A program made the position numbers and the translations under genes. Below, piece by piece: positions 8,780 through 61,564 of a stretch of DNA of 64,000 nucleotides. Numbering within the stretch: the stretch's first letter is position 1; each line of letters begins with the position of its first letter. Under the pieces are notes generated by a model that ran no database searches, was not told the DNA's origin, and was given only the letters and a program-made list of their open reading frames with translations. Source of the stretch: a virus (taxonomy: Duplodnaviria; Caudoviricetes); IMG/VR virus record IMGVR_UViG_2695421015_000001, positions 61,537-125,536 of that record; one strand, 5' to 3'.

Positions 8780-8809
8780 CTTGCGGCAGGACTCGCGCCT
8801 TGCTATCTC
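8780..8809 (+). promoter_or_regulatory. Putative sigma70 promoter
   Basis: cTTGCGG-17 bp-TATCTC (preceded by TGC), upstream of a hairpin-rich leader and the tRNA. Confidence 0.4.
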
Positions 8810-8972: not shown

Positions 8973-9158
8973 ATGACCAACCCGATCGCCAAAGTCGTGC
9001 ACTGCCCGACATGCGGCGCGCCTCCCGGGCGCGCCTGCCAGCAGCTCAGACCTGATCGGATCAGGGTCGTGCCGACGCACTCCGCTCGCCGGAAGCTGCT
9101 CGAGCAACCAGTCAGGGTTCGTACCGCAAGCCGCAAGGCCCCACGCTCCCTCGCGTAG
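8973..9158 (+). CDS. Small zinc-finger protein
   Basis: CPTCGAPPGRAC...H..R motif. Confidence 0.6.
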   Translation: MTNPIAKVVHCPTCGAPPGRACQQLRPDRIRVVPTHSARRKLLEQPVRVRTASRKAPRSLA

Positions 9159-32275: not shown

Positions 32276-34237
32276 ATGTCCAACACCTTCCTTGATGGGC
32301 AGCAGAACCTTTCGGCGCTGACGGTCCCCGGCGTCTATGGCGATATCGTCCTGCCCACCGGGATGATCCTCGGCACGGCCACGAATATCGAGGGCCTTGT
32401 CGGCGTCGGAAGCTGGGGCCCGCTCAATGCGCGCATCCCGATGTCGACCCCCGCCGATGCTGCGCTCAACGTCGGCCCTCCGGTGATCCGGCCCTACGAC
32501 ATCTCGACGTACATTGCTGCGGCGTCGCAGGTTGGCGGCGCGATCGGCTTCTACGGCATCCGCGTCTCCGACGGCACCGATACGGCCGCGACTGCGACGA
32601 TCCAGTCCGCGATCACGATCACCGGCAAATACACCGGCATTCTCGGCAACGGCATCCAGTTCTCGATCCAGAACGGCAGCCTGGCCAACAGCTTCATGGG
32701 CGTCGTGGCCTTCCCGGGCTATCCGCCGGAGCAGTTCAACAACATTCTTGGGCCGACGCCCGCGAGCGCCGCCTATACGTTCTCTGCCAATCCGGCGGCG
32801 AATGACGTGATCACCATTGCCGGCACCGCGGTTACCTTCGTGAACGCAACTCCGACCGGAAACGAGGTGCTGATCGGCACGACTCTGGCCTTCACGCTGT
32901 CGAACCTGCTGGCGATGCTGCTGACTTCGACCGATACGGGCCTGTCGAAGTGCAACTACGCCCTTGCCGGCAGCGTGCTGAAGGTTATCGCCAGCCAGAC
33001 CGCCGACGGCGGCGTTAATGCCGGCACCGCCGGCAATTCGTTGACGGTGGCGAAAACCTCGACAGCCATCACGGTGTCGGGAGCCACACTCTCCGGCGGC
33101 ACCGGCACCTGGCAGACGTTCTGGACCAATCTCGCCAACGCCATCAACAACGGCACGCCCTATCACGGGCCCTCTGCCTATGTGATCGCCACCGCGGAGA
33201 CCTCGACAGTGGCTCCGACCCTGTCGACGACGGTCCAGCTCTCTGGCGGAACCGACGGTGCAGCAAACGTCACCGACGCGACGCTGATGGGTGAGGACGT
33301 CTCGCCGCGCACCGGCATGTATGCGCTGCGCAACTCGCTGTGCGACTGCTTCACGCTGTGCGATCTGTCGACGGAAGCCGACTACGCGGCGATCGTGTCG
33401 TTCGGTCTTTCCGAGACCATGCTGCCGATCTTCGCCACGACCTCGGGCGACACCGTCGCCGACGCGCTCTCGATCCGGGTCAATGCCGGCATCGACAGTC
33501 CATGGTTCTGGCTGATCGTGGGCGACTATCCGACGTTTTATGACAGCTACAACGGCGTCTCGCGTCTCATCAATCCGAGCGCGTTCGGCATCGGCATCGT
33601 CGGCAATCTGTCGCCGCAGCAGTCGCCGTTGAACAAGCCGCTGCAGGGCGTCTCCGCCACGCAGACCTCGACGCTGGGCCAAACCTACAGCGACACCGAA
33701 CTGTCGCAGATCAACACCGGCGGCATCGACGTCATCCTGCCGGCGTCCCAGTCGCCGGGCGGGAACTACTACTCGTTCGCCACGGGCCGCAACGCTTCGA
33801 GCAACACGGCGGCGAACGGCGTCGAATACACCCGCATGACCAACTTCCTGATCCGCGCCGCGCAGAGCAAGGCGGCCGGCAGCTTCATTGGTCAGTTGCA
33901 GTCGATCCAGCCGACCGACGAGACGCGCGCAAACGCAAAGTCTCTGTTCGACGGCTTCTCGGCGCAGCTTGCGTCCGCGTCGGTAGGTCTCGGCATCAAC
34001 GGACAGGGCATGATCGACACGCCTTGGCTGGTGCAGTGCGACGCCAACAACAACCCGGCCAACCTGCAGGCGCTCGGTTACCTGTTCCTCTACTGGCAGG
34101 TCCGCTACCTCAACGTCATCCGATATTTCGTCGTCAAATTCCAGGGCGGCGGCAACGTCACGGTGACGGTGCAGTCCACGCCGCCGAGCCCGTCGCAGTT
34201 CACGAGCGCGGCCAACACCTCGACGACGCAGTCCTAA
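32276..34237 (+). CDS. Contractile tail sheath protein
   Basis: VPGVY, SWGPLN, LSGGTDG, V.CDA.NN...LG.L...QVRYL motifs. Confidence 0.9.
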
Positions 34238-40729: not shown

Positions 40730-41818
40730 GTGGCGATCACGTCCGGCGCAGGACCGCATTCCGCGTTCCTGAACGTCAACGGCCAGTCGTTCCCGATCGA
40801 GCACGGCTCGGTGGAGCAGCAGGCCAAGCGCAAGAGCGGGACGTTCTCGTGCGCGATCCCGCTGACCTATCCGGGCGCGCTCGAAGCACTGACCGGCCTC
40901 GGACAGAACACCGCAACCATCACCGTCACGACGCGCGGGATGAACGAGCCGCTGACGACTGGAGAGATCGACAAGACCAATTTCGACCTCATCGGCCTCG
41001 TCATCAATGTGCATGGCCGCGACGCTTCCGCCCCGCTGCACTCGAACAAGACCAGCGAGAAGTGGCAGAACAAGATGGGCAGCGACATCGTGACCGATCT
41101 CGCCACCCGCGTCGGCCTGAAGGTGCAGGCAGACCCCTCCGGCCTGATGGCCGGCAAGCAGCTGCAACAGGATTATGTCCGGCTGTCGGATAACGTCAGC
41201 TTCTCCTACGTGATCCACAAGCTGGCGGAGTTCGACGGTGCACGCTGGTATATCGATGCGACCGGAACGCTGCATTACCAATCACAGGACAATCCGACCG
41301 GCGTCTACACGCTGAACTATGTGCCGCCCGGTCCGGGGCCGATGGCGGCCGACTCCCTCGCGCTCGTGGTCAAGCGCAACGTGCAGGCCGGAAAGAGCCA
41401 ATCGGTCTCGATCAAGGCGTGGCACCCGAAGCAAAAGCAGGTGTTCACGGACACCTATGTCGTCCCGGGCAAGGTCGGTCAGGTCAGCTACAACTATCAC
41501 ATCCCCAATCTTCTTCAGGACCATGTCAGCCAGCACGCCAAGTCCAGAGCGATCGAGCGGGCGCGCAACGAATTTACCATCGAGGCCAGCGTTCCCGGCG
41601 ATCCGACGGTCAATGTCGGGATGGATCTGCAACTGAACGGCACCGGCTATTTCGACTCGACCTATCAGATGGACAGCGTGACCCACGAGATCGGAATGGC
41701 TGGTCACACCACACACATCACCGCGCGCGGTGCGGCCGCAGGCCGAATTGCCTCGTCCACCTCGTCCACGGCACCGACACCGGCCGAGCAACTCGCAGCG
41801 GGCGAAATCGCACCATGA
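40730..41818 (+). CDS. Baseplate hub (P2 gpD/Mu gp44-like)
   Basis: SDIV..LA...GL, G.LHY, GDP....G..L.L.GTG.FD..Y....V.H. Confidence 0.8.
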   Translation: MAITSGAGPHSAFLNVNGQSFPIEHGSVEQQAKRKSGTFSCAIPLTYPGALEALTGLGQNTATITVTTRGMNEPLTTGEIDKTNFDLIGLVINVHGRDASAPLHSNKTSEKWQNKMGSDIVTDLATRVGLKVQADPSGLMAGKQLQQDYVRLSDNVSFSYVIHKLAEFDGARWYIDATGTLHYQSQDNPTGVYTLNYVPPGPGPMAADSLALVVKRNVQAGKSQSVSIKAWHPKQKQVFTDTYVVPGKVGQVSYNYHIPNLLQDHVSQHAKSRAIERARNEFTIEASVPGDPTVNVGMDLQLNGTGYFDSTYQMDSVTHEIGMAGHTTHITARGAAAGRIASSTSSTAPTPAEQLAAGEIAP

Positions 41819-42330
41819 GCGATCTTGAAGACAGGGTGCTTGCCATCGTCGAGCGATGGTACGCCAGCCGTTACAGCGAGCGACACGGGCTCGTCACCGC
41901 CTACGACCCGGTCAACTATCTGGCCAAGGTGGCGTTCATGCCCGAAGGGCAGGAGAGCGGCTGGCTCCCGATCGAGACCGGCCACGTCGGCAACAGCTAC
42001 GGCGTCGCGGTCGGACTGCAGCCGGGCGACGGCAAGAAAACCGGCGATCAGGTCGTTGTCCGCTTCCAGGAGGGCGACGTCGAGTCCGGCAAGATCGTCC
42101 AGCGCGTGCACTCCGACAGCGACACGCCGCCGGCGGTTCAGTCCGGCGAGATGGTCATGTGGACGAAGTTTCAGAACAGCGGCGGCGGATCGGATAGCGC
42201 GCAAGGCGGGCAGGGCGGTACCGGGCAAAAAATCTACTTCAAGAATGACGGATCTCTCACAAGCGAAGACGGCAACGGCGCTGTCACCGTCCACGACGGC
42301 CAAGGCAACGTCACGGTAACCGCAGTATGA
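41815..42330 (+). CDS. Baseplate spike (gpV-like), short
   Basis: G.V.AYDP...KV...PEG.ESGWLP...GDQV.V.F.EGD OB-fold; ATG at 41815. Confidence 0.85.
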   Translation: MSDLEDRVLAIVERWYASRYSERHGLVTAYDPVNYLAKVAFMPEGQESGWLPIETGHVGNSYGVAVGLQPGDGKKTGDQVVVRFQEGDVESGKIVQRVHSDSDTPPAVQSGEMVMWTKFQNSGGGSDSAQGGQGGTGQKIYFKNDGSLTSEDGNGAVTVHDGQGNVTVTAV

Positions 42331-43274
42331 CCATCACCCATCGTGTCGTGAACCAGACCGGCCCCGCCGAGCTGCCGGGAAGCCTGTCCGATATCGCCTC
42401 GCAACTATCCGGCATGGCCGCCCAGGTCTCTGCCTTGGCGGGGGCGGGTGTCGGCTTGCCCGGACTCAACAGCATCGGCGGACAGATCAGTTCGCTTGCG
42501 ACCTCCATAAGTTCGACGCTGACCGCCGCCGGCAATGCGTCGGCTGCGGGCATCGCGACCGAGATCGCCGGCATCGGATCGCAGATCGCCTCCAGTGGCA
42601 TGACCGGCATGGCAGCGCTTGCGACCTCGCTGTCGGGCCTCACCTCGCAGCTTAGTAGCCTGTTGAATGCAGGCGGGTTGGCGCAGGCGCTGCACCAGCA
42701 CATTCTCGATAAGATCAACGGCATCACCCATAGCGCCTTTCAGGGTCAGCATATCATCCAGTTGCTGACATCGGGGATCGTGCACCAGTCGGTCGCGATG
42801 GTGCAGCATATGGCGCCACAGATCCCTGTTATCGGGAATTTGCTCGGCTCAGACACAGCAACCTTCACCAAGGGCATCACGGCGCTCGGCTTCAACGTCT
42901 CTTCGGACGCGAGGCTCAAGAGCAATATCGAGACGTACGAGCCATCGATCGACGCCTTCATGCAGGCGGCCGTCAAGACTTTCATCAAGCGCCACATCCA
43001 CACCGTGGTGCACGACGACGGCACAGCCACTTCCGAGGTCGGCAAGGACGAGGGCGTTCCTTCGTTCGGTTTCATCGCCCAGGAAATCCGGAAACTTTTC
43101 CCCGAGATCGTCAGCGAGGCGAACGGCTTCCTCACAGTCGACGAAGGCAAGCTCGGCTTCATCGTCTGGGTGGTGCTGCAAGATTTCATCGCCCAGACGC
43201 GCGCAGCGACAGCTTCGATGCGCTCCGAGATCGACGCCCTCAAGGAAGAGATGAGGCAACTTAAAAATGGCTGA
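42327..43274 (+). CDS. Spike-associated protein with C-terminal peptidase S74 intramolecular chaperone
   Basis: SSDARLKSNI...GFIAQE....FPEIV followed by coiled coil. Confidence 0.75.
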   Translation: MTITHRVVNQTGPAELPGSLSDIASQLSGMAAQVSALAGAGVGLPGLNSIGGQISSLATSISSTLTAAGNASAAGIATEIAGIGSQIASSGMTGMAALATSLSGLTSQLSSLLNAGGLAQALHQHILDKINGITHSAFQGQHIIQLLTSGIVHQSVAMVQHMAPQIPVIGNLLGSDTATFTKGITALGFNVSSDARLKSNIETYEPSIDAFMQAAVKTFIKRHIHTVVHDDGTATSEVGKDEGVPSFGFIAQEIRKLFPEIVSEANGFLTVDEGKLGFIVWVVLQDFIAQTRAATASMRSEIDALKEEMRQLKNG

Positions 43275-43635
43275 TCTCTCTCTCGAGTGGGAAGACGACT
43301 TCGGCGTCGATGCGACAGGCGACCTGCTTGTCGTTGACGGCGATGATGAAGTTCGCCAGCGCCTTGAGCGGCGGCTGTTCACTGCGGTGCAGGGTTACGT
43401 TTGGCACCCAGACTATGGCGCCGGCTTGCCGCAGAAGATCGGCAGCGTCCTTTCGGTCGAGGAAATCAGAGCGGTGGTCACGTCGCAACTCGCGCTTGAG
43501 GCGTCGGTAGCGCCATCCCCACCGGCGCAAATAACGGTTTCCGCCGATCTCAACCAGCCCGACCTGACCACCATCGGCATTCTTTATTGGGATGCGCAGA
43601 CCGGCGTCAGCGTCTCTTTCTCGATCACCGCTTGA
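43267..43635 (+). CDS. Baseplate wedge (gp25/gpW-like)
   Basis: GDL.......QRL.RRL.T....Y.WHPDYGAGL. Confidence 0.8.
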   Translation: MADLSLEWEDDFGVDATGDLLVVDGDDEVRQRLERRLFTAVQGYVWHPDYGAGLPQKIGSVLSVEEIRAVVTSQLALEASVAPSPPAQITVSADLNQPDLTTIGILYWDAQTGVSVSFSITA

Positions 43636-43643
43636 GGGCATAG

Positions 43644-44798
43644 ATGCCGACACTTCCGACCCAATCGTTCGCAACGATCGTTGCGAACGTGGCCGCCGGC
43701 ATTCAGGGCCGCGCCGCGAAGTTGCTGAACTTCTCGACCGGATCAACCCTGCGCGCGATCGCCGAGGGTTTCGCCGGACTCTTCCTGTGGTTTCAGGCGC
43801 TGGTGATCCAGCTGCTTTCGGCCATTCGACTGAGCACGTCGAGCGGGAACGACGTCGACACTTGGTGCGCCGACTTCATGCCTGTGGTGCCCGGCACCAA
43901 CTCGCCTCGTCTCCCGGCTCAGGCCTCGACCGGCGTCGTCACGTTCTCGCGCTTTACGGCAGCACCCACCTCCCGCTTCATTGCTGTCGGGGCGACCTTG
44001 CAGACGGATGACGGCTCCGAGAACTTCGTCGTCACCGCGAACACCACTTACGCGACCTATTCGGCGGCGCTGAACGGCTACACGCTGGCGGCCAACGTCG
44101 GCTCGATAACCGTTCCGGTCCAATGCGCGACCCCCGGATCGGGAGGCAACGTGGCGGCCGGCACCATCACGGTCATCACGACTCCGATCACCGGCATCGA
44201 CACGGTCACCAATGGCGCCGCCTTCATCAACGGCTTTGACTCGGAGAGCGACGCCGCGCTGAAGGCGCGGTTCGTGCTTTATATCGCCTCGCTGCGAGCC
44301 GGGACCGAGGGCGCGATCGGTTATGCGATCGTGAGCATCCGGCAGGGGATGCAATACCAGATCTGGGAGCCGGGCACCGGCGGCTACACTCAACTCACCG
44401 TCTTTGTCGATGACGGGTCTGGGGCTATCCCCACGGCCACCTTGACGGCCGCGCAGGTGGCGGCGTTCGGCGTGAAGGCGGCCGGGCCGCCGATGGCGGT
44501 GCTCGCCGCCACGGAAATTAGCGCCAACCTCACCATGACGATCACGACCGCCCCCGGCTACGACCATCCGACGGCGGTGGCGCAGGTGTACGCCGCGATC
44601 ACGAACTACATCAACGGCATTGGGCTCGGCACAACTCCCGCCGCCGGCACACTGTCTTACGGCAAGCTCTATCAGATTGCGTTCAACGCCTCGCCCGGAG
44701 TGACCGACGTGACCGGCTATACGCTCAACGGCGTACTGGCTGATCTCGTCCCCGGTGCGGGGCAGACGATCAAATCCGGGTCCGTGGTCGTATCATGA
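43644..44798 (+). CDS. Baseplate J/gp47-like protein
   Basis: GS.LRAI.E, G..GNV.AG.I, G.D.ESD..L.AR. Confidence 0.9.
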   Translation: MPTLPTQSFATIVANVAAGIQGRAAKLLNFSTGSTLRAIAEGFAGLFLWFQALVIQLLSAIRLSTSSGNDVDTWCADFMPVVPGTNSPRLPAQASTGVVTFSRFTAAPTSRFIAVGATLQTDDGSENFVVTANTTYATYSAALNGYTLAANVGSITVPVQCATPGSGGNVAAGTITVITTPITGIDTVTNGAAFINGFDSESDAALKARFVLYIASLRAGTEGAIGYAIVSIRQGMQYQIWEPGTGGYTQLTVFVDDGSGAIPTATLTAAQVAAFGVKAAGPPMAVLAATEISANLTMTITTAPGYDHPTAVAQVYAAITNYINGIGLGTTPAAGTLSYGKLYQIAFNASPGVTDVTGYTLNGVLADLVPGAGQTIKSGSVVVS

Positions 44799-45535
44799 TC
44801 GGAGACAGCAACGACATCCTCCAGCGCGTACGGAAGGTACTCCCGCGTCGCTGGTTTTCTTGGGGCGCGCCGATCCGCGACGCCCTTCTTGGCGGTCTCT
44901 CCGACGGCGCCGCGTGGTGCTATTCGTGGATAGGCTACGCGCGCCAGCAGTCCAGGATCGCGACGTCGAGCGGAATATTCCTCGACATCGTGGCGTGGGA
45001 CTTTTTCGGCGCGAATTTCGTTCGACGCTCCGGCGAAAACGACGCATCGTTTCAGCCTCGCATCTTGCAGGAGATCCTGCGTCCGAGACAGACGCGCGAC
45101 GCGATCAGCCAAGTGCTGACGGACCTGACGTCTAAGCCGCCGAAGATCATCGAACTCTGGAACCCGCAGGACTGCGGCGGCTACGGCGTCGCTCAGATGG
45201 GCGGCTACGGCTCGGGCCCCGGCTGCTACGGCTCGCTGCTGTTCGACAACCAGATGCTCGTGTCCGCGTATCACGCACCCACCCAAGGCATCCCGAATGT
45301 CGATGGCTATGGCGGGTACAACGCCGGCTATGGCGTCGGGACAATCGAATATGCCGACCTGTCGCTGATCACCGGCCCCATCACGGACGCCGAGATATAC
45401 GCGCGCGTTCAGCAGACCATCGCGGCCGGCACGATAGCTTGGGTCGCCATTCAAAATCCGCCGACGCTCCTGATTACGGACGAGAGCGGAATCGCACTAA
45501 CCGCCGATAGTGGCGACATACTCGTGGTTGGATGA
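44795..45535 (+). CDS. Baseplate wedge (gpI-like) with C-terminal LITDESG..L..DSG peptide
   Basis: RI.T..G.FLD....DFFG....RR.GE.D..F..RI. Confidence 0.8.
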   Translation: MIGDSNDILQRVRKVLPRRWFSWGAPIRDALLGGLSDGAAWCYSWIGYARQQSRIATSSGIFLDIVAWDFFGANFVRRSGENDASFQPRILQEILRPRQTRDAISQVLTDLTSKPPKIIELWNPQDCGGYGVAQMGGYGSGPGCYGSLLFDNQMLVSAYHAPTQGIPNVDGYGGYNAGYGVGTIEYADLSLITGPITDAEIYARVQQTIAAGTIAWVAIQNPPTLLITDESGIALTADSGDILVVG

Positions 45536-45536
45536 C

Positions 45537-46565
45537 ATGAAAAAACTGACGTGTGCTGCCGTACTGTTGTTCGCCTTGTTCGCGGGCGCTTGCCCGACGC
45601 TGGCACAGACGACCCAGACGCAACCGTTCTCTTCTTTCGTTCTGGGCCTGCCGGCGATCAGCTCGCTCGCCGGAACCGAAAAGATCTTGACGTTGCAGGG
45701 CGGCGTCCCGATGACCTCCACGCCGGAGCAGATTCTCTCGGCCGCCAATGGAGACTGTGCGTTTAATCCATCGAGTGTCTGCACCAAAACCAGCGGTCTT
45801 CCCTTCGCACCATCGGCCACGACCGACACAACCAACGCTGCGAACATCACCTCTGGCACTCTTAGCGCCAACCGTCTCGCCCTGCAGACGGCGTACTTCT
45901 ATGTCGGCAACGCATCGAACAATCCGGTCGGCACCCCGATGTCGGGCGACTGCACGCTGGCGAGCACGGGCGCGGTTACTTGCACCGAGACCCGTGGAGT
46001 TGCGTTCGCGCCCTCGGCCACGACCGACACGACCAATGCCGGAAACATCAGCTCGGGGACGCTGAACCTTAGCCGCCTCTCTCTGCTCCAGGCGCAATTC
46101 TACGTCGGCAACGCATCCAACAATCCGGCCAGCGTACTGATGTCTGGCGACTGCGGGCTGGCCTACACTGGCGCGGTCACTTGCCCCACGTCCAATGGCT
46201 ACGCCACCGCAACACTCAACAAGCCCGATCAGACGGTAAGCGGTGGTGCGAATGTCACGACATTGATTCTGACCGCAGGAAGTTCGCCGACGATAGACTG
46301 TGGCGCTAGACCTTTGCAGTCCATCATAGCTTCTGCGAGCGCGTGGACAATCTATCCACCATCTAGCGATGGTTCCTGCATGTTGATGGTCATTAACAAT
46401 GCGACATCTGGTAGTCCGGCCCCCACCTTTGCGTCCGGCTTCTATGTTGGCTCAAACACGGGCGACGCCATCCCGACGGGCGCTGGTGCGGTTTACATTA
46501 TCTCCATCGTTCGCATCACGGGGCCTACTGGCGCAGCCTCGACCTACTCGATCAAGGTGATCTAA
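45537..46565 (+). CDS. Tail-fibre-like repeat protein with predicted Sec signal peptide
   Basis: MKKLTCAAVLLFALFAGACPTLA-Q; ~68-aa tandem repeat with FYVGNASNNP...MSGDC......VTC. Confidence 0.75.
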   Translation: MKKLTCAAVLLFALFAGACPTLAQTTQTQPFSSFVLGLPAISSLAGTEKILTLQGGVPMTSTPEQILSAANGDCAFNPSSVCTKTSGLPFAPSATTDTTNAANITSGTLSANRLALQTAYFYVGNASNNPVGTPMSGDCTLASTGAVTCTETRGVAFAPSATTDTTNAGNISSGTLNLSRLSLLQAQFYVGNASNNPASVLMSGDCGLAYTGAVTCPTSNGYATATLNKPDQTVSGGANVTTLILTAGSSPTIDCGARPLQSIIASASAWTIYPPSSDGSCMLMVINNATSGSPAPTFASGFYVGSNTGDAIPTGAGAVYIISIVRITGPTGAASTYSIKVI

Positions 46566-47485
46566 TGATCAGGAGCACTCGTCTTCGCTCCGCGATCTTT
46601 GCGCTCGCCGCCTTCCTCGCGCTCTCGCCGAGCGCCGCACAGATCGGCCCGCTGCCCGGCATGGGGCCGATTGTGTTGGGAGGCGCTATTCCTGCGACTC
46701 CGAGCGTCAACTATCTCGTTGTTGCTGGCGGTGGTGGCGGCTCGCGTAACGGCGGCGGCGGCGGTGCTGGCGGCGTGCTCCCCGGCACAGCGTCGGTTTC
46801 CGGAGCATACAGCATCACAGTTGGTGCCGGTGGTGCTGGCAGCGCTGCCTCGGGAGTTAACGGCAACAACGGCGCAAATTCCGTATTCGGTTCGATCACT
46901 GCAATCGGTGGCGGCGGCGGTGGCGGTAACACCGCCAACGGCAATGCGGGCGGTTCTGGCGGCGGCACGGCGGTCAGCTCAACATCATTAGCGGGCGGCG
47001 CGGGCACGTCCGGACAGGGCTACGCTGGCGGCGCAAACTACGCGGCCTCCTACTATCCATCAGGTGGTGGCGGTGGTGCAGGCGGCGTCGGCGGAACCGG
47101 TTCTGGATCACAGTCAGGATCTGGCGGCCCCGGTATAGCTTCCAGCATAACTGGAACATCGACCTACTACGGTGGTGGTGGCGGCGGTGGTGGCACGTTT
47201 TATGGTGGTCTGAACGGCGCTGGTGGAGCTGGCGGCGGTGGCGCTGGCGGAAATGACAACGGCGGCAACGGCATCAGCGGCACGGCGAACACGGGCGGCG
47301 GCGGCGGCGGCGGTGCTGCCGGGCAGACCTACGCTTACAACGGCGGCAACGGTGGCAGTGGCGAAGTCGTCATCTCCTACCCGAACAACTATCGTCAAGC
47401 GTCGGTGAGCGGCTCGGTCTCGTTCTACAACATCGGCGGCAACTACATCTACGTGTTCACCGGTAGCGGCACGATCTCGTTCTAG
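46565..47485 (+). CDS. Glycine-rich tail-fibre-tip-like protein with predicted Sec signal peptide
   Basis: MIRSTRLRSAIFALAAFLALSPSAA-Q; YLVVAGGGGG...Y.ITVGAGG...ANTGGGGGG...GGSG.V.I.Y. Confidence 0.75.
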   Translation: MIRSTRLRSAIFALAAFLALSPSAAQIGPLPGMGPIVLGGAIPATPSVNYLVVAGGGGGSRNGGGGGAGGVLPGTASVSGAYSITVGAGGAGSAASGVNGNNGANSVFGSITAIGGGGGGGNTANGNAGGSGGGTAVSSTSLAGGAGTSGQGYAGGANYAASYYPSGGGGGAGGVGGTGSGSQSGSGGPGIASSITGTSTYYGGGGGGGGTFYGGLNGAGGAGGGGAGGNDNGGNGISGTANTGGGGGGGAAGQTYAYNGGNGGSGEVVISYPNNYRQASVSGSVSFYNIGGNYIYVFTGSGTISF

Positions 47486-47514
47486 CGGATCTCGACCAGC
47501 AACACGTCCGTCCC

Positions 47515-47542
47515 AAGGCGCCTCACGGCGCCTTTTTCTTTT
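47515..47542 (+). terminator. Intrinsic terminator
   Basis: aaggcgcc-tcac-ggcgcctt-tttctttt. Confidence 0.75.
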
Positions 47543-47569
47543 CCAACACCCAATCAAGGAGCATGGCGC

Positions 47570-49303
47570 ATGGACCGCCAGACGATTTACGCTGGCCAGA
47601 TTCCGCTTGAGACGGATCAGCTCAAGCAGTCGCAGAACGCGATGGTCGGCCTCGCCAAGCTGGCTTCCGCCGTGCTCGGCTCGACCACCATCGTCAACGC
47701 ATTCACTGTCACGCCGACGGTGCCGGCTTCTCTCAACGTCATCGTGACGCCGGGCGAAATCTATCAGCTCGAAAATCTCGAGGCGTCGGCGTGGAGCTCG
47801 CTGTCCCCCGACACGCACACCATCCTGAAGCAGGGGGTCATCCTCGACCCCGTGACGCTCGGCATCACGCCGCCGACCACGGTCGGATACAGCCAGGTCT
47901 TCCTCATCGAGGTGCAGTATCAGGACCTCGACACCGGGTCGACGGTGCTGCCGTACTTCAACGCCAACGTCCCCACCGTCCCGTTCTCTGGCCCCGGCAA
48001 CGCCGGCTCTGCGCAGAATACCGTGCGCAAGGGCGTCGCCTCGGTTCAGATCAAGGCCGGTCTCGCTGCGCCGTCCGGCACGCAGACGGCACCCACGGCG
48101 GATGCCGGCTGGACCGGCATCTATCTGGTCACCGTCGCCAACGGCGCGACCACGATCACGTCGGGCAACATCACGCCGGTGTCGGGCGCGCCGTTCATTC
48201 CCGTGACGCTCCCGCAAGTCCCGGCGGGTGTTCAGTCCGGTCAGTGGCTGTACGGCACCGACACGGGCGGCGTGAACGCCATGGTGGCGAACGTCACGCC
48301 GGTCCCTACGACGCTTACCCCCGGCATGACCGTCCACATCAGGGCGGCCAATTCCAACACGGGCGCAACGACCTTTAACCTGAACGGCCTCGGCGCATCG
48401 GCCGTTCACCGCGCCAACGGCGCGGCCTTGTCTGCCGGCGACATCAACGCCGGCATGGTCGTCGAACTTATCTGGGATGGTTCGAGCTGGCAGATCGCCA
48501 ATTATTTCGGCTTCACCTCCAGCACGGTCAACAACAACACTTACACGCTGTCGATCCCCTATGCGGCGGACTCGAGCGGCGTAGCCAACTCAATCGTGGT
48601 CGCTCCCAACCCGGCGCTCACCGCGCTGACGGCGGGCAACGAGCTTATGGTCAAGCTCGCCAACACCAACACGGGCGCGACGACGATCACCGTCAACTCT
48701 CTGGCGGCGGTCTCTGTCGTCAACCCCAATGGTTCGGCGCTCACCGCGGGACAGATCGTCGCCGGCGAAATGCTTTGGCTGCTCTACGACGGCACCCACT
48801 TCCAGGTGTGCAATCCCAGCGTGGCCACCGTCAACGTCTACAACCTCACCAACGCGCCCTTCGCCGACGTCAGCACCTTCTACGGGTCCGGTTCTGTTGA
48901 AGCGCCGTATGCCACTCACACCTTCGCGCCGTTCACGTCGGCGACGATTGGAAGTCAGGGCAACGTCGCGTTCTCTTCGGGAGAGATCGTGATCGAGACG
49001 GCTGGCCGCTACCTGTTCGCGTACTCCACCGACGTCTACAGCGTTTCCGGCTCCGATCCCTACGCCGCGTTGTCGTCAGGCTGGATACTTTGGAACGGAG
49101 CCGTTCAGTCGCCGTCTGGAAACGGTCTCCAGATCGTCAACGACTCTGGTCCTTACATCAAGGAGGATTACGGCGGCGGATGCTGGATACAGAGCCTTAG
49201 CGCCGGCGACACCATCGCGTTCGCTGTCTACCAGGTTAACGGTAGCTCGCTGACGTACGATGTTGGCTACGGCTTCAATGTAACCGTGACGAGGGTGCAC
49301 TAA
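47570..49303 (+). CDS. Main tail fibre protein
   Basis: MDRQ.IY.GQIP.ETD baseplate-attachment N-terminus; two NTGA.T...N...L.AG.I.AG repeats; beta-sandwich-like tip. Confidence 0.85.
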   Translation: MDRQTIYAGQIPLETDQLKQSQNAMVGLAKLASAVLGSTTIVNAFTVTPTVPASLNVIVTPGEIYQLENLEASAWSSLSPDTHTILKQGVILDPVTLGITPPTTVGYSQVFLIEVQYQDLDTGSTVLPYFNANVPTVPFSGPGNAGSAQNTVRKGVASVQIKAGLAAPSGTQTAPTADAGWTGIYLVTVANGATTITSGNITPVSGAPFIPVTLPQVPAGVQSGQWLYGTDTGGVNAMVANVTPVPTTLTPGMTVHIRAANSNTGATTFNLNGLGASAVHRANGAALSAGDINAGMVVELIWDGSSWQIANYFGFTSSTVNNNTYTLSIPYAADSSGVANSIVVAPNPALTALTAGNELMVKLANTNTGATTITVNSLAAVSVVNPNGSALTAGQIVAGEMLWLLYDGTHFQVCNPSVATVNVYNLTNAPFADVSTFYGSGSVEAPYATHTFAPFTSATIGSQGNVAFSSGEIVIETAGRYLFAYSTDVYSVSGSDPYAALSSGWILWNGAVQSPSGNGLQIVNDSGPYIKEDYGGGCWIQSLSAGDTIAFAVYQVNGSSLTYDVGYGFNVTVTRVH

Positions 49304-49843
49304 ATGTTGACCTTGACCATGACAGCCGCTCAAGCGTCGGTGTTTTGCACGCGGTTCAGCGCAACTGAACCGGCGGCTAATCCGGTGTGGAACGGAACCG
49401 CGCTGCTGATCCCCGATGCCTACGCGACCGCCGCGCAGACGTTGTTCGCCGCCGGCTTTGCGCCGACGGCGGCAGAACTGATCTCCTACGCCAACACCAA
49501 GCAGTCGAAGATCATGGGCGGGGGCACGCTGGTGTCGGTCGGCAACGGCGTCCTCGTCGAATGTTCGACTGACCCCTCCAGCCTTGTGCTGCTGCAGGGG
49601 GCTGCGTCGATCGCTGCGACCTCTCCGACGGCCACGTTCAATTGGGTGCCGACCAACGGCACCCCGATCACGCTGGTCGCCGCGCAGATGACAGCAATGT
49701 TCGCCTCTGTGTCGACCTTCCTGCAAGCAACCTTCACGACGCTCAGTCAGGTCATCACCGCTATCAACGCCGGCACCATCACCACGACGGCGCAGGTCGA
49801 CACGCCGCCGTCGCCGATCCCGGCGTGGCCGGTTAACTCGTAA
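49304..49843 (+). CDS. Tail fibre assembly protein (DUF4376-like)
   Basis: Follows the fibre; W...NG..I.L.A.Q......V....Q..F...AI.AGTITT..QVD. Confidence 0.65.
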   Translation: MLTLTMTAAQASVFCTRFSATEPAANPVWNGTALLIPDAYATAAQTLFAAGFAPTAAELISYANTKQSKIMGGGTLVSVGNGVLVECSTDPSSLVLLQGAASIAATSPTATFNWVPTNGTPITLVAAQMTAMFASVSTFLQATFTTLSQVITAINAGTITTTAQVDTPPSPIPAWPVNS

Positions 49844-49848
49844 CCCTC

Positions 49849-49872
49849 AAAGCCGCCTTCGGGCGGCTTTTT
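49849..49872 (+). terminator. Intrinsic terminator
   Basis: aagccgcc-ttcg-ggcggctt-ttt. Confidence 0.8.
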
Positions 49873-49887
49873 CATTCGGACATCACC

Positions 49888-50529
49888 ATGGATCAAGCGC
49901 TTTTCGGCGCCGCTTTGACGCGGCTGTGGCCGCACGCGGACATGCATATCCCCGGCCTGACGGCGGCAATGATCGCGCAGGCGCCGGTACTGTTCCCGAA
50001 ATACGGTCTGACCTCGCCGGTGGCGATCGCCATCATGATGGGCGAGTTCACCGAAGAGTGCGCCGGCGGGGAGCAGGTCGAGGAAGACCTCAATTACCGC
50101 GCCCCCGTGCTGCATTCGCAGTGGCCGACGCACTTCACGATGGCTCAGGCGCTGGAGATGCAGCACCAGCCGCGCCTGATCGCGAACCAAGCCTATAACG
50201 GGAGGATGGGCAACCGCATCGGCACCGATGACGGTTGGGACTATCGCGGCCGCGGTCCCGCGCAGAGCACCGGCGAAGAGGCGTACGCGCTGCTGACCAA
50301 GCTGCTCGGCGTCGACTTCATCAACCATCCCGAACTCATCAACACGCGCGAGCACTTCTTCGAGGCCGGCATCGTCGACTTCGTCAAGATTTGCGGCTGC
50401 CTGCCTTACGCGCAGCGCGGCGACGAAGTGAACGCCACGCGCCACCTCAACGGCGGCCTGATCGGACTCAAGCAGCGCGAGGTCTCGACCTCGATGTGGG
50501 GGCACGCCTTTGGCGTGGTGCTGCCGTGA
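49888..50529 (+). CDS. Endolysin, glycoside hydrolase family 19-like
   Basis: EE.LNY...IAN.AY.GRMGN....DGW.YRGRG..Q.TG...NGG.IGL..R. Confidence 0.88.
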   Translation: MDQALFGAALTRLWPHADMHIPGLTAAMIAQAPVLFPKYGLTSPVAIAIMMGEFTEECAGGEQVEEDLNYRAPVLHSQWPTHFTMAQALEMQHQPRLIANQAYNGRMGNRIGTDDGWDYRGRGPAQSTGEEAYALLTKLLGVDFINHPELINTREHFFEAGIVDFVKICGCLPYAQRGDEVNATRHLNGGLIGLKQREVSTSMWGHAFGVVLP

Positions 50530-50726
50530 TGACGCAAGCTGCCGTGAAGACATCGATCGACAGCGCGCTCGGCTCCCAGCTTGACCGGCTGTTCGGGGTT
50601 TTGGTTACGAACCTGGAAACGCAATCCGCGGCCGAAGCGACCGCCGAATTTCGCAAGGGCCTCGAGTTCAGCCTTCGCGCGCATGCCATCGCGACCTCGG
50701 TCGCCGAAGAACTCATCAAGGGCTAA
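50529..50726 (+). CDS. Small hypothetical protein
   Basis: TGATG coupling; C-terminal part of ORF 50235..50726. Confidence 0.6.
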   Translation: MTQAAVKTSIDSALGSQLDRLFGVLVTNLETQSAAEATAEFRKGLEFSLRAHAIATSVAEELIKG

Positions 50727-50728
50727 AA

Positions 50729-51196
50729 ATGATCACGATCCGGTTCGTTACCGGACACGACCTCGTGTCCGACGGCATTCGCGCGTTCGAATATGGCTTT
50801 TGGGCAACACACGTCGAAGCTCTGATGCCGGACGGGACGTTGCTGGGCGCGCACGCTGAGGGCGGCGTCCTGGCTCGCCCGCACGACTACGACAAATCCG
50901 TGTTTACCCGGGAGCTTTATGTTTCGATCCCGGCAACGGCTGCACAGACGGACGCCTTCCATAGCTTCCTGCGGTCGCAGATCGACAAGCCATACGACTT
51001 CAAGGCGATCGCCGGCATCGCGCTAGAGCGAGACTGGCAGTCGACCAATGCATGGTTCTGCAGCGAGCTGCAGGCCGCAGGCCTCTGTCGTCCGGAAGTG
51101 GCGATCTTCCCGCCGCATCTGGCGACCGAGTTCAACCACGTTACCCCTCGCGATTTGCTGCTGATCGTGAGTGGTCGCATCGACCTGGCAGCGTAA
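50729..51196 (+). CDS. Permuted papain-like (NlpC/P60, YiiX-type) enzyme
   Basis: THVE (His) precedes KPYD...WFCSEL (Cys). Confidence 0.8.
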   Translation: MITIRFVTGHDLVSDGIRAFEYGFWATHVEALMPDGTLLGAHAEGGVLARPHDYDKSVFTRELYVSIPATAAQTDAFHSFLRSQIDKPYDFKAIAGIALERDWQSTNAWFCSELQAAGLCRPEVAIFPPHLATEFNHVTPRDLLLIVSGRIDLAA

Positions 51197-51246: not shown

Positions 51247-52101
51247 ATGAAGTTCAATATCAGTATGGCCATTCTCTTGCTGGCCTTTCTGATCGATGTT
51301 GAGGGCGCGATCGCCAACGACAAGATCAGCCTCGTTGGCATGGTGCCAGCCGCCTGGATCGAAGCGATCAAGGCGTGGGACAAGTTCCTGCTGTTTTGCG
51401 GCACCAGCCTGATCGGACTGCTCGCGGCCCCCGGTGCCTTCACCAAGAGGGTTGCCGGCGCAGCGGCGGCGGTTCTCGTCGCCTTCGCCCTGCTGACCGC
51501 CACGGTCAGTACAGCGCACGCCGCCGACGTCGTCACCACGACTGCAACGACGAGCGCGGCGGTCACGCCAGCGACGCAGAACAACTGCCTCATCAACTCC
51601 TGCACCGGCTGGTATGCTGGTGTCGGCTTGACCGGCAACGGCACCAACGCCGACATCCTCGGCAGCGGGCTCAACGGGTCGGTTTTTGCCGCGGGCGGCA
51701 TGCTGGACATGCACGGCGGCTACCAACTCTGGAACGGCACCTATTTCGCCGCGGTGGAAGCCGGTCTCGGATACCAGTTTCAGAACGGTGCGATTGCGGT
51801 CACCACCAACAACCTGACCGGCTACGAGATCGTGAAGTTCGGCGGCAACCTTAGCGGCCTAGTCAACAACGCATCGAGCCCAATCGCCATTCCGAGCTCG
51901 CTGTCCAATGTCCTGATGTCTCCGTATTTCGCTATGGGCGCGATCCAGCGTGATGGCGTGTCGCAGTGGGCGACCGGCGCAGGTGCCGCGTTCCTGCTGG
52001 CGACGAACTGGGACTTGGACATCCGGTACCTGTACGCGCCGGCGGCCGGCAATGTCGGCTCCGACAACCTCGTCACGATCGGTCTCAACAAGCACTTCTG
52101 A
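51247..52101 (+). CDS. Holin-like TM segment + internal signal peptide + Omp25/RopB-like beta-barrel
   Basis: Two N-terminal hydrophobic segments, then KRVAGAAAAVLVAFALLTATVSTAHA-AD, then GWYAG...GGYQ...WATGAG...VTIGLNKHF with terminal Phe. Confidence 0.75.
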   Translation: MKFNISMAILLLAFLIDVEGAIANDKISLVGMVPAAWIEAIKAWDKFLLFCGTSLIGLLAAPGAFTKRVAGAAAAVLVAFALLTATVSTAHAADVVTTTATTSAAVTPATQNNCLINSCTGWYAGVGLTGNGTNADILGSGLNGSVFAAGGMLDMHGGYQLWNGTYFAAVEAGLGYQFQNGAIAVTTNNLTGYEIVKFGGNLSGLVNNASSPIAIPSSLSNVLMSPYFAMGAIQRDGVSQWATGAGAAFLLATNWDLDIRYLYAPAAGNVGSDNLVTIGLNKHF

Positions 52102-57705: not shown

Positions 57706-58097
57706 ACCCGCCGAGCTAGTCAGCGGGCTTTGTCTTTCTCTTTTTTCTTTCGTTTCAAAACGTCGGCCTGGCTTCGATAGGCCAGCGCTACGGCACGAAG
57801 CCCAGCCGCGCGATCAGGGTCCGACGCGCGCATGGCCGCTTGCTCCGCCTTATCCGCCTGTTTTCGAAAGAACTTAGTTTGCTTGACCATGGTGACAACG
57901 GGATTGGGAACGCATGGGTTTCCGTTTCAATATGGGCCTCTTCCGTTGCAAATGACACCGCGCGGCACCTGAAATTTTAGTTTAGTACTTTTCCCGTCGC
58001 AATCGGGTCGGCCTCGATTGACCTGCGCGGAGAGCTGGGGTCCCCTCGTTTACGTTTTCGTTTCGACCAGCCCGCGATCCTTTCCGAGTAAGTCGGT

Positions 58098-58793
58098 CTA
58101 GCTTGGTTCGCCGCGTCGGCGGTCAATCACAGCGACAGAGTGCACACCATCTAGTTCGTCTAGCTTTGCAACAAAGGTTTTGATGTCTTGCGACGAAACC
58201 TTGCTCAAGAGGACAGTGACCTCTTCGATGCCGTCGCGAGGCGTAGTGAGAAACCGTTTAATCTGGCCAGTGCGAATATTGAGTGTTCGTTTGACAACCT
58301 CCGGCGTAACAGAGGCTTGCGTCGCTTCAATTTTCAGTCGGCAGCTTTGATTGCGAGCGCGATAAGCTTCTTCCAGCGGCTTTACTCCAGCGAGAATAAC
58401 AATGATGACAGCGGTGGAAACGCCAGCCGCGAAATAGAGACCGCCACCAACGGCCAAACCAATTGCAGCGACCGTCCAAATACTCGCCGCTGTCGTCAGA
58501 CCCCTGACTATCTCACCTCGGGCCAGAATTGCGCCGGCACCAAGGAAGCCAATGCCTGAAACCACCTGTGCAGCAACCCGCGAGGGGTCAAGAACGACGT
58601 TTTGAGAGGAAAGGCTGTCTCGGAACCCAAAGGCGGAGACGATCATGATCAGGCAAGCACCAACGCAAACCAACATATGCGTTCGGATACCAGCGGCCCA
58701 GAGAAGTCGCTCGCGTTCAAATCCGATGACGCTGCCGAATACCGCCGCTACTAGCAGGCGAGCAACGACGTCCAAGTTGGGAAGCGTGTTCAT
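58098..58793 (-). CDS. mgtC: MgtC/SapB family protein
   Basis: IG.ERE....AG.RTH.LV..G, DPSR.AAQVVSGIGFLGAG.I, GLTTAA.IW. Confidence 0.92.
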   Translation of the reverse strand: MNTLPNLDVVARLLVAAVFGSVIGFERERLLWAAGIRTHMLVCVGACLIMIVSAFGFRDSLSSQNVVLDPSRVAAQVVSGIGFLGAGAILARGEIVRGLTTAASIWTVAAIGLAVGGGLYFAAGVSTAVIIVILAGVKPLEEAYRARNQSCRLKIEATQASVTPEVVKRTLNIRTGQIKRFLTTPRDGIEEVTVLLSKVSSQDIKTFVAKLDELDGVHSVAVIDRRRGEPS

Positions 58794-59311
58794 GCTGACC
58801 TCTTTTCATTCAGAAAATTCTCCGCACCGTAAATTGAACCGCGTTCGTCGAGGGAAAACAACCCGGCGTCGAAATTGGATACCAAATAGGCAGCCGACGT
58901 GCCGGCATCTTGACAGTCGGCACGTCTGGTCTAAGAGGGCTGACGACGACGATGATCGACGAAAACTTGGAGCGGTTCCTGCCGTCGAGCCTTGCCCGGT
59001 GTCGGTCAAAAGCGCCGAAGCTTCCTCAACGAGACTGAGGCGATCCGCAAGCTCGGCATCTCGATCATCCGCAGCTACCTCCTCCGCCGCCTCTTCGCGA
59101 CCCATGTCAAGCGGTTTGCCGCTTGGTGCGAACGCATCGTGGCGTTGATCCCGGAGTACTGAAATTCGGAAGGTAGCGTAAGCCCGTGTCCAGTCGGGAA
59201 ACTGCCCTCACGCGCCTGAACGATCATCTCATGAGCAGTTCAATCCGAACATCCAGCGCCGGGATGACGTGGAAGGCGTTGGAAGCTGTCCCGATCTCAC
59301 GGATGATCCGA

Positions 59312-61564
59312 TTAGGCGATCGCCTCTAGCGCGACGGCAGCCGCACCTTGAGTGGGATCGGCGGGCTTCTGGGCTCCCATCATCATCTTATAGTGCCCGT
59401 GATGATCTGTCTTTTCGAAGATGCGGCGGAATACGTCGAGATAGCGAGCCACGACGCTGTCGTCAGCGGAGATGTAGAGATCGTCGTGGGCGCTGTGCGA
59501 TCCGTCATTGACCCAAGAGAAAAGTGACGTGCAGAGTTGCTGGTCCTTGCCCTCGAACTGCGCGATAATATCGTCCGTGTCGACGTTGCCGAGAATCTTG
59601 AAATAGTTCTCGATGATGCGCCTGAGCGTGTTCTGGATGGTCATGTTCGAGCGGTTCGGGTTCCGCACTTCCGCCCAGAGTAATTCGTACGACGTCTTAA
59701 TCGGGTTGTGATTGTAGCCGACGACCTTTGAGACGCCGTCGACCTTGCGGACGATCCAGAAGGTCTCTTGCGCTCTGCATTCCGCTCCCCGGTTGCGATC
59801 GAACGATACCTCCTTGTGAAAGTAGATGTTGTGAGTCAGCAGGAAGACTTGCTTGATCTGGCCTTTGCCATCGGAAGCCTCTTTGAGCAAACGCTTGATC
59901 AGGTTGCTGACGATGAACAGCACGTCGCTGTCCAGACTCGACACCGGATCGTCAAACACGACAATTCGGTCGGAGGTGACATCCGACTCTGATACGCTGC
60001 CGCGTAGCAGGTGGTAAAAATAGAGGAAGCAGACGAAGCTTTTCTCGCCTTCGCTAAGCGTCGCCGCCGCGTTGTCACCGCCGTTGCGGACAATTTCATA
60101 GAGGTGGCCGCGCTCGCCCGCCGTTCTCAGCGTGAAGCCAGAGAAGCCAAACGAGGTCAACAAGGAGTTGATCGCGCTCACCGTCGGCTGAACGCTTGTG
60201 ACTTTTTTTTCCAATTCACGCAGCTCCGCCCTTGCGGTAAGCAGCTGGCCCTCTTTCGCTGCGAGGCCTGTAGTCAGTCCTCCGACGGCCTTGTCGAGCG
60301 CGTCCCACTCCGCCCGGTACTTCTCGATTGTCGCGCTGTACTCATCGAGCAGGTACTTCCAGATTTGGCCGATGAGCGTGCCGCGCTCGGCGGCAATGTT
60401 GTCTACGAGCGCGTTATGAGCGGCAATTGAGGCATTGGCGGTGGCGATCCTGGCGATAATCGGCTCCGCCAGTTCTGCGAGCGGTTCCAACGTCACCGGC
60501 GTGCTGGGCTCGCGCTTCTTGGCTTCGAGCAGGCGCTTGTTCACCGCGAGGCGGGCGGCGATTCGATCGACATCTGCGCGCAGAAGCTCCCGGTCGACGT
60601 GACGATTGTCGTGGGCGATAGCTTCTTCGAGCATCTTCAAAGTCGAGCCAGCGACGACATCGTATGTCTCAAGCGCAGCGGCGATCGACGCCATATCGTT
60701 GAGGAAGGTTTCGTCGAAATAGGCATTGAGCCGCGCGGCAAGCTCCGCCTCGACTTCCTGCTGACAGAAAGGACATTGAGATCCATGGCCGAGATACTGC
60801 AGTCCTTGCCTAACCCAATCGCTGTTGCCAAGTCGCCGAATTAGGGCGGCGACATCGACATCTTCCTTGCCGAGCACTTTCTTAGCGAGCACGGGCGCGC
60901 GTTCGACCGCCAGTAGATCGGTTATGTCAATAGTGCCTATCACGGCGTGGCGCTCGAGCCCATCTTCAAACAACGTCACGGCCTTGCGCTTCAGCTCATC
61001 GACGGTCACGAGCGGCGCCGTGTTGGCCGCCAACTCTACCAGCACCTTGTCGCAGAACTTCGACTGCGAGTTTCGGACGCCTGAGAAGGCGTCCTTAAAA
61101 TAGGGATCGTACTTGCCCTTGATCTTCCAGCAGTCAGATTCGAACTGGGCGCGCAGCGTCCGTAGCTCTCCCCGCTTACCGGACGACGAGTCCACCACGC
61201 CTAATGTGCCGTTCAGCTTCGCAATACCATCCTCAAGGTCTTCGACCCTGGCTTTGGCTTTCTCGATCTTGTCGAGCGTGTCGCTCGCGGCCTCTCCAAG
61301 GGTAAAAATTCCGGGAAGTGGAAGCTGCGGCACAAAGTTGCGGGTCACGAAGTCGCTGTTGTAGACGCAACAGGCCAGCGTCCGACCCTTCTCCCACGTC
61401 AAGGCGCAGGAAGCATAGGAGCTAGGATTATAAATGACGCGCGAGATCGTTGTCTTGCCGGTTCCGTTCGTGCCGAAGATGAAATTGATCGCCTTCAGCG
61501 ACGAGAGCTTCTCGCCTTCACTCGAATAGCTTGCGTTACCCGCAATCTTAATTTCCTGAAGCAC
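59312..61564 (-). CDS. rloC: RloC-like ABC ATPase with zinc hook and C-terminal HEPN domain
   Basis: GTNGTGKTT, CPFCQQ, LSEGEK, DDPVSSLD, LTHN, RRIIENYF...NDGSH. Confidence 0.75.
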   Translation of the reverse strand: MLQEIKIAGNASYSSEGEKLSSLKAINFIFGTNGTGKTTISRVIYNPSSYASCALTWEKGRTLACCVYNSDFVTRNFVPQLPLPGIFTLGEAASDTLDKIEKAKARVEDLEDGIAKLNGTLGVVDSSSGKRGELRTLRAQFESDCWKIKGKYDPYFKDAFSGVRNSQSKFCDKVLVELAANTAPLVTVDELKRKAVTLFEDGLERHAVIGTIDITDLLAVERAPVLAKKVLGKEDVDVAALIRRLGNSDWVRQGLQYLGHGSQCPFCQQEVEAELAARLNAYFDETFLNDMASIAAALETYDVVAGSTLKMLEEAIAHDNRHVDRELLRADVDRIAARLAVNKRLLEAKKREPSTPVTLEPLAELAEPIIARIATANASIAAHNALVDNIAAERGTLIGQIWKYLLDEYSATIEKYRAEWDALDKAVGGLTTGLAAKEGQLLTARAELRELEKKVTSVQPTVSAINSLLTSFGFSGFTLRTAGERGHLYEIVRNGGDNAAATLSEGEKSFVCFLYFYHLLRGSVSESDVTSDRIVVFDDPVSSLDSDVLFIVSNLIKRLLKEASDGKGQIKQVFLLTHNIYFHKEVSFDRNRGAECRAQETFWIVRKVDGVSKVVGYNHNPIKTSYELLWAEVRNPNRSNMTIQNTLRRIIENYFKILGNVDTDDIIAQFEGKDQQLCTSLFSWVNDGSHSAHDDLYISADDSVVARYLDVFRRIFEKTDHHGHYKMMMGAQKPADPTQGAAAVALEAIA

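Follow-up and report, generated by a model that had tools for sequence, protein, structure and literature searches.

Can a tailed phage make part of its receptor-binding apparatus outside the cytoplasm? The assembly of tailed phages is by textbook wholly cytoplasmic, and the question is raised by two consecutive genes, hereafter A and B, in the tail module of a putative prophage within the virus record IMGVR_UViG_2695421015_000001 (Duplodnaviria; Caudoviricetes). The stretch analysed, hereafter the window, comprises 64,000 nucleotides (positions 61,537 to 125,536 of that record) and corresponds to positions 3,076,371-3,140,370 of a single 9.09-Mb contig in the large genome of a soil bacterium. 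Both genes encode fibre-type proteins with predicted Sec signal peptides, and A directly follows the gene of a baseplate wedge protein, hereafter I. A preliminary description of the window had suggested that such accessory fibres are exported, oxidatively folded and attached to virions only at lysis, or else act as secreted receptor decoys or adhesins.

The sequences of these proteins and of their homologues lend good support to export into an oxidising compartment. The parts of the two genes that carry this conclusion are the following, where aa stands for amino acids, AF2 for AlphaFold2 and pLDDT for its predicted local distance difference test.

45537-46565, + strand: gene A, a predicted exported fibre-like protein of 342 aa (leader and homologues)
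45537-45605, + strand: predicted signal peptide of A, residues 1-23, ending A-x-A/Q (n-h-c rule, see below; Gln24; AF2 helix 3-16)
45606-45743, + strand: conserved N-terminal fibre (putative docking) domain of mature A, residues 24-69 (conserved residues, profile)
45744-46190, + strand: three hairpin repeats of A with cysteine pairs 74/82, 139/149 and 206/216 (repeat profile)
46245-46562, + strand: C-terminal beta-sandwich tip of A, residues 237-342, with cysteines 259/284 (AF2 pLDDT 80-91)
46565-47485, + strand: gene B, a predicted exported Gly-rich protein of 306 aa without cysteine (PF21722, phrog_2295)
46565-46639, + strand: predicted signal peptide of B, residues 1-25, ending ...SAA/Q (n-h-c rule)
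46694-47380, + strand: Gly_rich_2 domain of B, residues 44-272 (PF21722, 72 bits against a cut-off of 24.3)

Secretion leaders and their conservation

Leaders were called with a rule of our own, the n-h-c rule, which requires a basic n-region, an uncharged hydrophobic h-region and a small-x-small cleavage site; its background in the window was 5 of 208 six-frame open reading frames (ORFs) of at least 100 aa. A and B both satisfy it as Sec/signal peptidase I (SPase I) leaders, with predicted cuts after residues 23 and 25, respectively, so that the basic-hydrophobic-Ala/Q pattern pointed out in the preliminary description is indeed present on both. The same description had allowed that the true starts might lie downstream of the hydrophobic segments. 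The earliest listed start of A is a GTG at 45510, and the one that agrees with all homologues is the ATG at 45537, which keeps the hydrophobic segment in the protein.

Applied to homologues, the n-h-c rule found a leader in 96 of the 119 homologues of A among the matches listed, and in 8 of 120 homologues of B. The Gln at the +1 position is invariant in the aligned A sequences (13/13 in alignment A1 and 38/38 in alignment A5), and the h-regions measure 9-17 residues under the rule. The leader of A also has a cysteine at residue 19, five residues ahead of the cut site; it is missing from most homologues whose N-termini were inspected (alignments A1 and A5 included), and was seen in P0002 and in the fibre of locus L111.

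Cysteine pairs follow the leader

Mature A has eight cysteines in four pairs (74/82, 139/149, 206/216 and 259/284) and mature B none. Cysteine pairs across predicted hairpins of the A repeats had been noted before, and three such pairs were found, with 259/284 in addition. A hairpin-repeat profile was used to read the two cysteine columns in 337 non-redundant proteins. Among the 220 repeat units of leader-bearing proteins with both columns aligned, 190 carried cysteine in both, 29 in neither and one in a single column; in leaderless proteins, the corresponding counts were 15, 256 and 2 among 273 units, and the two positions were mostly II, VI, AV or IL. When the 12 leaderless proteins with a cysteine pair were inspected, at least 10 proved to have a leader lying past a mis-called start. 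The number of cysteines in the mature protein was even in 187 of 202 leader-bearing versus 73 of 122 leaderless proteins, with median values of 1.72 versus 0.5 cysteines per 100 aa. With its paired, conserved cysteines and even count, A thus has the pattern that goes with export in this family.

The conserved leader, the invariant +1 Gln, the cysteine pair that tracks the leader and the bias towards even cysteine numbers all speak for the export and oxidative folding proposed earlier, and we consider it very probable that A is exported and folded with disulfides in the periplasm, and that B is exported. A cysteine pair as opposed to a hydrophobic pair at these positions would, moreover, be a marker, readable from sequence, of which fibres take which route.

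Fibre domains of the two proteins

As judged from sequence profiles and models, the domains of A and the exchange of modules among its homologues identify it as a protein of the phage tail-fibre/receptor-binding type. It has no Pfam or PHROG match; a word-indexed search returned 442 homologues, 1108 representatives were matched at E<=0.001, and 156 BFVD entries were matched at the same threshold, many of them named tail fibre. One homologue bears the name of Bradyrhizobium, and B. lablabi contains the best genomic relative. The host genome holds one copy of A, and 2 of 300 genomes of the same family gave a match, in the tip domain only. In a tblastn search against 50,697 phage records neither A nor B gave a match, with the low-complexity filter on and B being of low complexity.

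Within the N-domain of A, residues E48, T60, T62, P63, Q65 and L67 are invariant in alignment A1, and a profile of the domain matches 72 of 5256 N-termini, 69 of these 72 being leader-bearing. The domain begins at residues 4-7 in the leaderless fibres P0117 and P0099, which indicates that it is an ordinary N-terminal fibre end; the attachment-like N-terminus that the preliminary description had read into A after cleavage is thereby borne out. At the other end, the tip of A resembles 6o38_A with a VIA Z of 8.4 (88 aligned residues, root-mean-square deviation (rmsd) 2.6), a tailspike with 7.2 and a phage capsid spike with 7.1, the values ranging from 8.4 to 6.1 across phage spike and fibre domains, and a Z near 8 representing only a moderate match. 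Searched by sequence against solved structures, A gave chance-level rows alone, namely a Fab and a type IX secretion system (T9SS) domain. Homologues of A exchange the tip for Gly_rich_2, Collar or Peptidase_S74 ends.

B consists of the leader, a short linker and the Gly_rich_2 domain, with a phrog_2295 match at E 4e-46 and an AF2 pLDDT of 89. Sequence searches against solved structures returned no match for B, and Foldseek against the pdb none at E<=0.001, the best being 9d93 at 1.5e-3; by VIA it superposes on the Bxb1 tail tip 9d93_Qa with a Z of 14.3 (165 aligned residues, rmsd 3.0, 37% identity), on the Pam3 fibre 7ypx_A with 13.5 and on the ALK glycine-rich domain with 5.6. The domain score together with the fold of the Bxb1 tip and Pam3 fibre agrees with the earlier assignment of this ORF as a Gly-rich fibre-tip domain. 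B has the fold in common with the Bxb1 tail-tip, Pam3 fibre and ALK/LTK glycine-rich proteins, but carries a secretion leader in place of their N-terminal attachment part. A strand of the 'FT.SGT' type, which stands ahead of the Gly-rich part in fused homologues, lies by eye at the C-terminus of B, a placement that suggests a circular permutation of the Gly-rich domain.

Setting of the cassette in the tail module

The genes around the A-B cassette are as follows.

43644-44798, + strand: Baseplate J-like wedge protein, 384 aa (PF04865 E 4.1e-30; phrog_6 E 1.2e-45)
44795-45535, + strand: gpI-like wedge protein I, 246 aa (phrog_26379 E 6.4e-55, residues 3-220)
45455-45532, + strand: C-terminal type-1 tail of I, residues about 221-246 (beyond the phrog_26379 profile)
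47515-47544, + strand: intrinsic terminator after the A-B cassette (hairpin and T run)
47570-49303, + strand: ordinary leaderless tail fibre F, 577 aa (phrog_4900 E 1.7e-15)
49304-49843, + strand: DUF4376 tail-fibre assembly-type protein (PF14301 E 4.5e-11; phrog_10508)
49888-50529, + strand: endolysin, GH19-like (phrog_181 E 4.3e-35; no leader by the n-h-c rule)

I belongs to phrog_26379 and follows the Baseplate_J gene, a place that it occupies in 88 loci. Gene A starts 1 nt past the TGA of I, and gene B overlaps the stop of A (TAATG) and is preceded by an AAGGTG ribosome site. The terminator, an 8-bp hairpin with 6 GC pairs and a T run, is the only terminator-like site in 43000-51000; a similar hairpin and T run lie behind the cassette in loci L004 and L031, and not in L033. 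The fibre slot after J and I, its tight coupling and its closing terminator are accordingly all where they had been described.

Past the terminator, an AAGGAG site precedes fibre F, whose N-terminus recurs right after I in most related loci. Since F, the DUF4376 helper and the endolysin all lie downstream of the terminator, A and B are additional to a complete fibre set. The earlier account was right that A and B are fibre-type genes and had left out the ordinary fibre, its helper and the endolysin; the presence of F at 47570 rules out A as the sole fibre of this phage.

The C-terminal tail of wedge protein I and the gene that follows it

The peptide with ...TDESG..LTADSG... at the end of I, to which a docking role had been ascribed, is present and consists of three short hydrophobic strands with D/E-x-G turns between them. 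Homologues of I were collected from IMG/VR (best 80 of 217 relatives) and from genomes, giving 73 distinct proteins, and their tails were classed by eye from each C-terminus together with the next gene. The three-strand tail occurs in 10 of the 73. In eight of these ten (the window, L004, L031, L032, L033, L111, L129 and L182) a leader-bearing fibre gene comes directly after I, and in the other two (L156 and L188) an ordinary fibre gene stands between I and the leader-bearing one. None of the 63 homologues with other ends has a leader-bearing gene directly downstream.

Most other I proteins stop 1-6 residues past the core, with F following; a second tail type precedes a different fibre N-terminus in six loci, and a third precedes a protein of 195-206 aa in four. 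The three-strand motif is retained across I proteins that are 39-66% identical to that of the window. As tail types pair with next-gene types, the tail of I behaves like an adaptor specific for the product of the next gene. The co-occurrence of tail and leader-bearing fibre gene, directly adjacent in 8 of 10 cases, is an observation, and the docking that had been ascribed to this peptide would be a step beyond it. The pairing of wedge-tail type with the next gene would amount to a testable code for the plugging of accessory fibres into this baseplate family.

Two further layouts were seen. At L110/L113, L118, L149 and L179, an I with the third tail is followed by the conserved 195-206-aa protein, which is leaderless, has no PHROG match and could be a further module that plugs into this baseplate. 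Locus L061 (= L155), at 4287-9143, comprises a tail-less I, the ordinary fibre and then a run of four leader-bearing ORFs (263-510 aa) whose N-terminal motif is a different one.

Leader-bearing tail proteins in cultured phages

The J protein of the window matches the Ralstonia phages Hyacinthe, Raharianne and Albius. Hyacinthe (MT740743) encodes an I homologue with a C-terminal tail, a 550-aa leader-bearing fibre, an ordinary fibre and a helper. Its genus was called virulent with high probability, in a paper whose available sections report no mass spectrometry (PMC7940629); lysogenic conversion is thus not the purpose of the leader-bearing fibre in this probably virulent phage. Hyacinthe and Raharianne have the same module as the window, their fibre likewise with added cysteine pairs, but differ in tail type and in the N-terminal motif of the fibre, whose body is common with leaderless podophage proteins. 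The body of the Hyacinthe fibre and the leaderless RSK1 ORF23 share 55% identity, with 4 cysteines in the mature Hyacinthe fibre against 1 in its relative. Residues 64-550 of the Hyacinthe fibre (L192, 8884-10536) recur in 45 other Ralstonia phage records at 38-55% identity, podophages included, and a receptor-binding body has, by these comparisons, evidently moved between leaderless and leader-bearing contexts in Ralstonia phages.

A second precedent comes from Cellulophaga phage phi10:1 (KC821618), where gp091-gp094 are labelled 'structural protein' in GenBank on the basis of experimental tandem mass spectrometry (MS/MS) proteomics. All four have a leader by the n-h-c rule, ending before Gln, Thr or Asn, and 0-2 cysteine pairs. 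Like A and B, they have Sec-type leaders and are encoded one after another in the tail region; they differ in their Bacteroidota host, siphovirus morphology, lack of sequence relation to A or B and small number of cysteine pairs.

Discussion

A proposed two-compartment route

On the evidence above, we propose, with confidence evenly divided for and against, that A and B serve as accessory proteins of host recognition and are produced by way of two compartments. The tail operon would supply both with cleavable Sec/SPase I leaders; export to the periplasm and cleavage ahead of the invariant Gln would follow. Folding would take place there, with four disulfides forming in A, and the particle, including wedge protein I, would be built in the cytoplasm. 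The C-terminal three-strand tail of I would be the socket for the N-domain of the presumably trimeric A fibre, which could not meet it before lysis breaches the inner membrane and would then be added to finished particles. B would be produced alongside A as a Gly-rich tip or adhesin like those of the Bxb1 and Pam3 virions, and might either cap A or stay free.

That A attaches to the particle by way of the tail of I when the cell lyses, much as the preliminary description had put forward, is in our estimation a balanced proposition: the tail that precedes a leader-bearing fibre, the layout in Hyacinthe and the MS/MS labels in phi10:1 are consistent with it, and the step itself is one that we infer. 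More broadly, and with somewhat less assurance, a second assembly line in the periplasm can be suggested for tailed phages, on which Sec-exported and oxidised fibres or adhesins snap onto a baseplate adaptor peptide between holin firing and burst, cysteine pairs replacing hydrophobic pairs. If so, these cysteine pairs would be both the price and the benefit of the periplasmic route, and host Sec, Dsb and the course of lysis would all affect the composition, host range and stability of virions. Receptor-binding proteins would then be lost wherever gene calling or phage engineering leaves 'secreted' products out of a structural module. In a Klebsiella random barcode transposon sequencing (RB-TnSeq) study, effects of DsbA on phage were put down to receptors.

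Evidence that weighs against attachment to the virion

Several observations tell against this proposal, in some cases against the counts beneath it. A control for relatedness, made on a tree of 38 columns, left one independent pair on supported branches; as the control does not resolve and yields a single supported pair, relatedness inflates the leader and cysteine counts. On the best tree, which lacks support, the leader state changes 29 times and the cysteine pair 28 times. The tail of I and the fibre gene abut on the DNA, and their possible inheritance as one block is a confounder of the pairing between them. Beyond the loci from which it was built, the tail profile had just two matches, both weak, at L133 (E 0.088) and at L074 (E 0.31); the similar tails there sit on unrelated proteins with leaderless fibres downstream, and the N-termini of those fibres resemble the docking motif by eye only, the N-domain profile not matching them. 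Six loci (L061/L155, L120, L130, L152, L160 and L163) combine a tail-less I with leader-bearing ORFs further downstream. The MS/MS precedent of phi10:1 is limited, since a 'structural' label can cover co-purifying proteins and the proteins concerned are not homologues of A.

Other points concern the cassette itself. A docking motif is missing from B, and loci L002-L109 yielded no B-like ORF. The cassette is optional: most relatives lack it, and it does not follow the I of L110/L113, which is 68% identical. The GC content at third codon positions (GC3) is 0.71 in A and 0.67 in B, versus 0.78-0.86 in the neighbours and 0.70 in the short W gene. A terminator of its own, atypical composition and optional presence are, in combination, features of a moron. 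In addition, Cys19 of A fits what we take to be a loose lipobox of the PROSITE kind, and A might then be a lipoprotein, giving a membrane-anchored product.

Alternative explanations

These features give weight to a different account, in which the exported A and B never join the particle and are instead a moron insert acting in the envelope or after release; we regard it as possible, though on the doubtful side. Masking or binding of receptors or polysaccharides, exclusion of related phages, keeping progeny off debris and service as lysogen adhesins are all possible roles, and Lom of phage lambda is an adhesin for its host lysogen. Beyond the optional presence, the lower GC3, the terminator found here and in L004 and L031, and the missing docking motif of B, this account draws on the wide occurrence of Gly_rich_2 in extracellular multi-domain proteins, where it is common alongside Laminin_G_3, fn3, He_PIG and pilin-type N_methyl domains, and on the membrane anchor that the lipobox would provide. 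The MAT fibres of Bdellovibrio are, as far as the sections consulted of their description go, leader-bearing phage-like fibres used as tools at the cell surface (PMC10769870). Lysogenic conversion, on the other hand, cannot apply in a probably virulent phage with the same layout. No sigma-70-like promoter was found upstream of A in a scan of the + strand over 43000-51000 for this one promoter type, and translation of both genes is coupled to that of the wedge gene. It is also left unexplained why a cytoplasmic baseplate protein keeps a three-strand tail just beside the fibre gene, or why mature A has retained the N-domain found in leaderless fibres of the virion type.

Morons of the lambda Lom/Bor type are likewise leader-bearing, lie amid tail genes, have their own terminator and are atypical in composition. 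Lom, however, is an outer-membrane barrel expressed in lysogens and is not itself a homologue of fibres, and A and B differ from Lom/Bor-type morons in being coupled to the wedge gene and in keeping fibre domains. The moron-like features of the cassette and the absence of a docking motif in B keep the decoy or adhesin option of the preliminary description alive as a tentative reading, from which the coupling to the wedge gene and the unexplained tail of I detract.

Sec-dependent tethering followed by release is known from signal-anchor-release (SAR) endolysins, and by the same logic an uncleaved or slowly cleaved N-terminus could retain the fibre at the inner membrane, to be set free for binding to the particle when the holin fires. 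Such a tether would agree just as well with the coupling to the late operon and with the link to the tail of I, but the small-x-small/Gln site with its invariant Gln is the mark of SPase I cleavage and h-regions of 9-17 residues are short for a stable anchor, and we consider it improbable. Still harder to credit is that the leaders are non-functional and that A and B remain cytoplasmic and are assembled as ordinary fibres are, which would agree with the textbook route for tailed-phage parts but would leave unexplained the leader and cleavage site conserved in 96/119 A homologues, the restriction of cysteine pairs to leader-bearing proteins and the even-cysteine bias (187/202).

Relation to known systems

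Returning to the two-compartment route, the nearest frame for the locus is the P2/Mu type of tail, in which gpJ, gpI, gpH and gpG follow the same W-J-I-fibre-assembly order, the fibre genes stand directly after the wedge genes and the parts are all cytoplasmic. The window has, as in P2 and Mu, an ordinary leaderless fibre and a helper, here of the DUF4376 kind; it differs in the two extra leader-bearing genes between I and F and in the extra tail of I. Coat proteins of filamentous phages, g3p among them, are Sec-exported virion proteins that acquire periplasmic disulfides before assembly, but filamentous phages are an entirely different type of virus and assemble at the membrane. We know of no tailed phage that uses a Sec/periplasm route of the filamentous type.

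In the literature searched, no description of Sec-exported fibres in tailed phages was found, in keeping with the earlier remark that such a route would be undescribed, and the nearest published analogue is the MAT family of Bdellovibrio bacteriovorus. According to the available sections of the source, MAT fibres have a leader, a conserved beta-rich N-domain of about 130 aa, a trimeric phage-like fibre and swappable tips (PMC10769870). They are thus like A in architecture, and in architecture only, and are exported and used outside the cytoplasm. The same sections present them as products of chromosomal genes of the predator, displayed on its own surface, outside a phage tail operon and with no known link to a baseplate protein.

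Other features of the window

From its ORF map, the region from about 12,000 to 54,000 reads as a contractile-tailed prophage, with the following further landmarks.

17185-18840: large terminase
29558-30445: head-tail adaptor
32276-34237: sheath-like protein
40730-41818: tail protein
42327-43274, + strand: fibre-like protein of 315 aa, located between the spike gene and the W-like gene and carrying an intramolecular chaperone domain (Peptidase_S74)

The last of these may be a central or additional fibre, and the W-like gene lies between it and the Baseplate_J gene, on the + strand. After the endolysin gene and a 155-aa ORF, the ORF at 51247-52101 (+ strand) contains a leader-like segment in its interior and ends in ...NKHF, a terminus of the sort seen in outer-membrane beta-barrels; it may be a Lom/Ail-like prophage moron. 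Towards the end of the window (58000-64000), GC drops to 0.53-0.58; this region, which includes a 750-aa ORF at 59312-61564 (- strand) with a P-loop-like N-terminus, is probably a prophage edge or a defence island.

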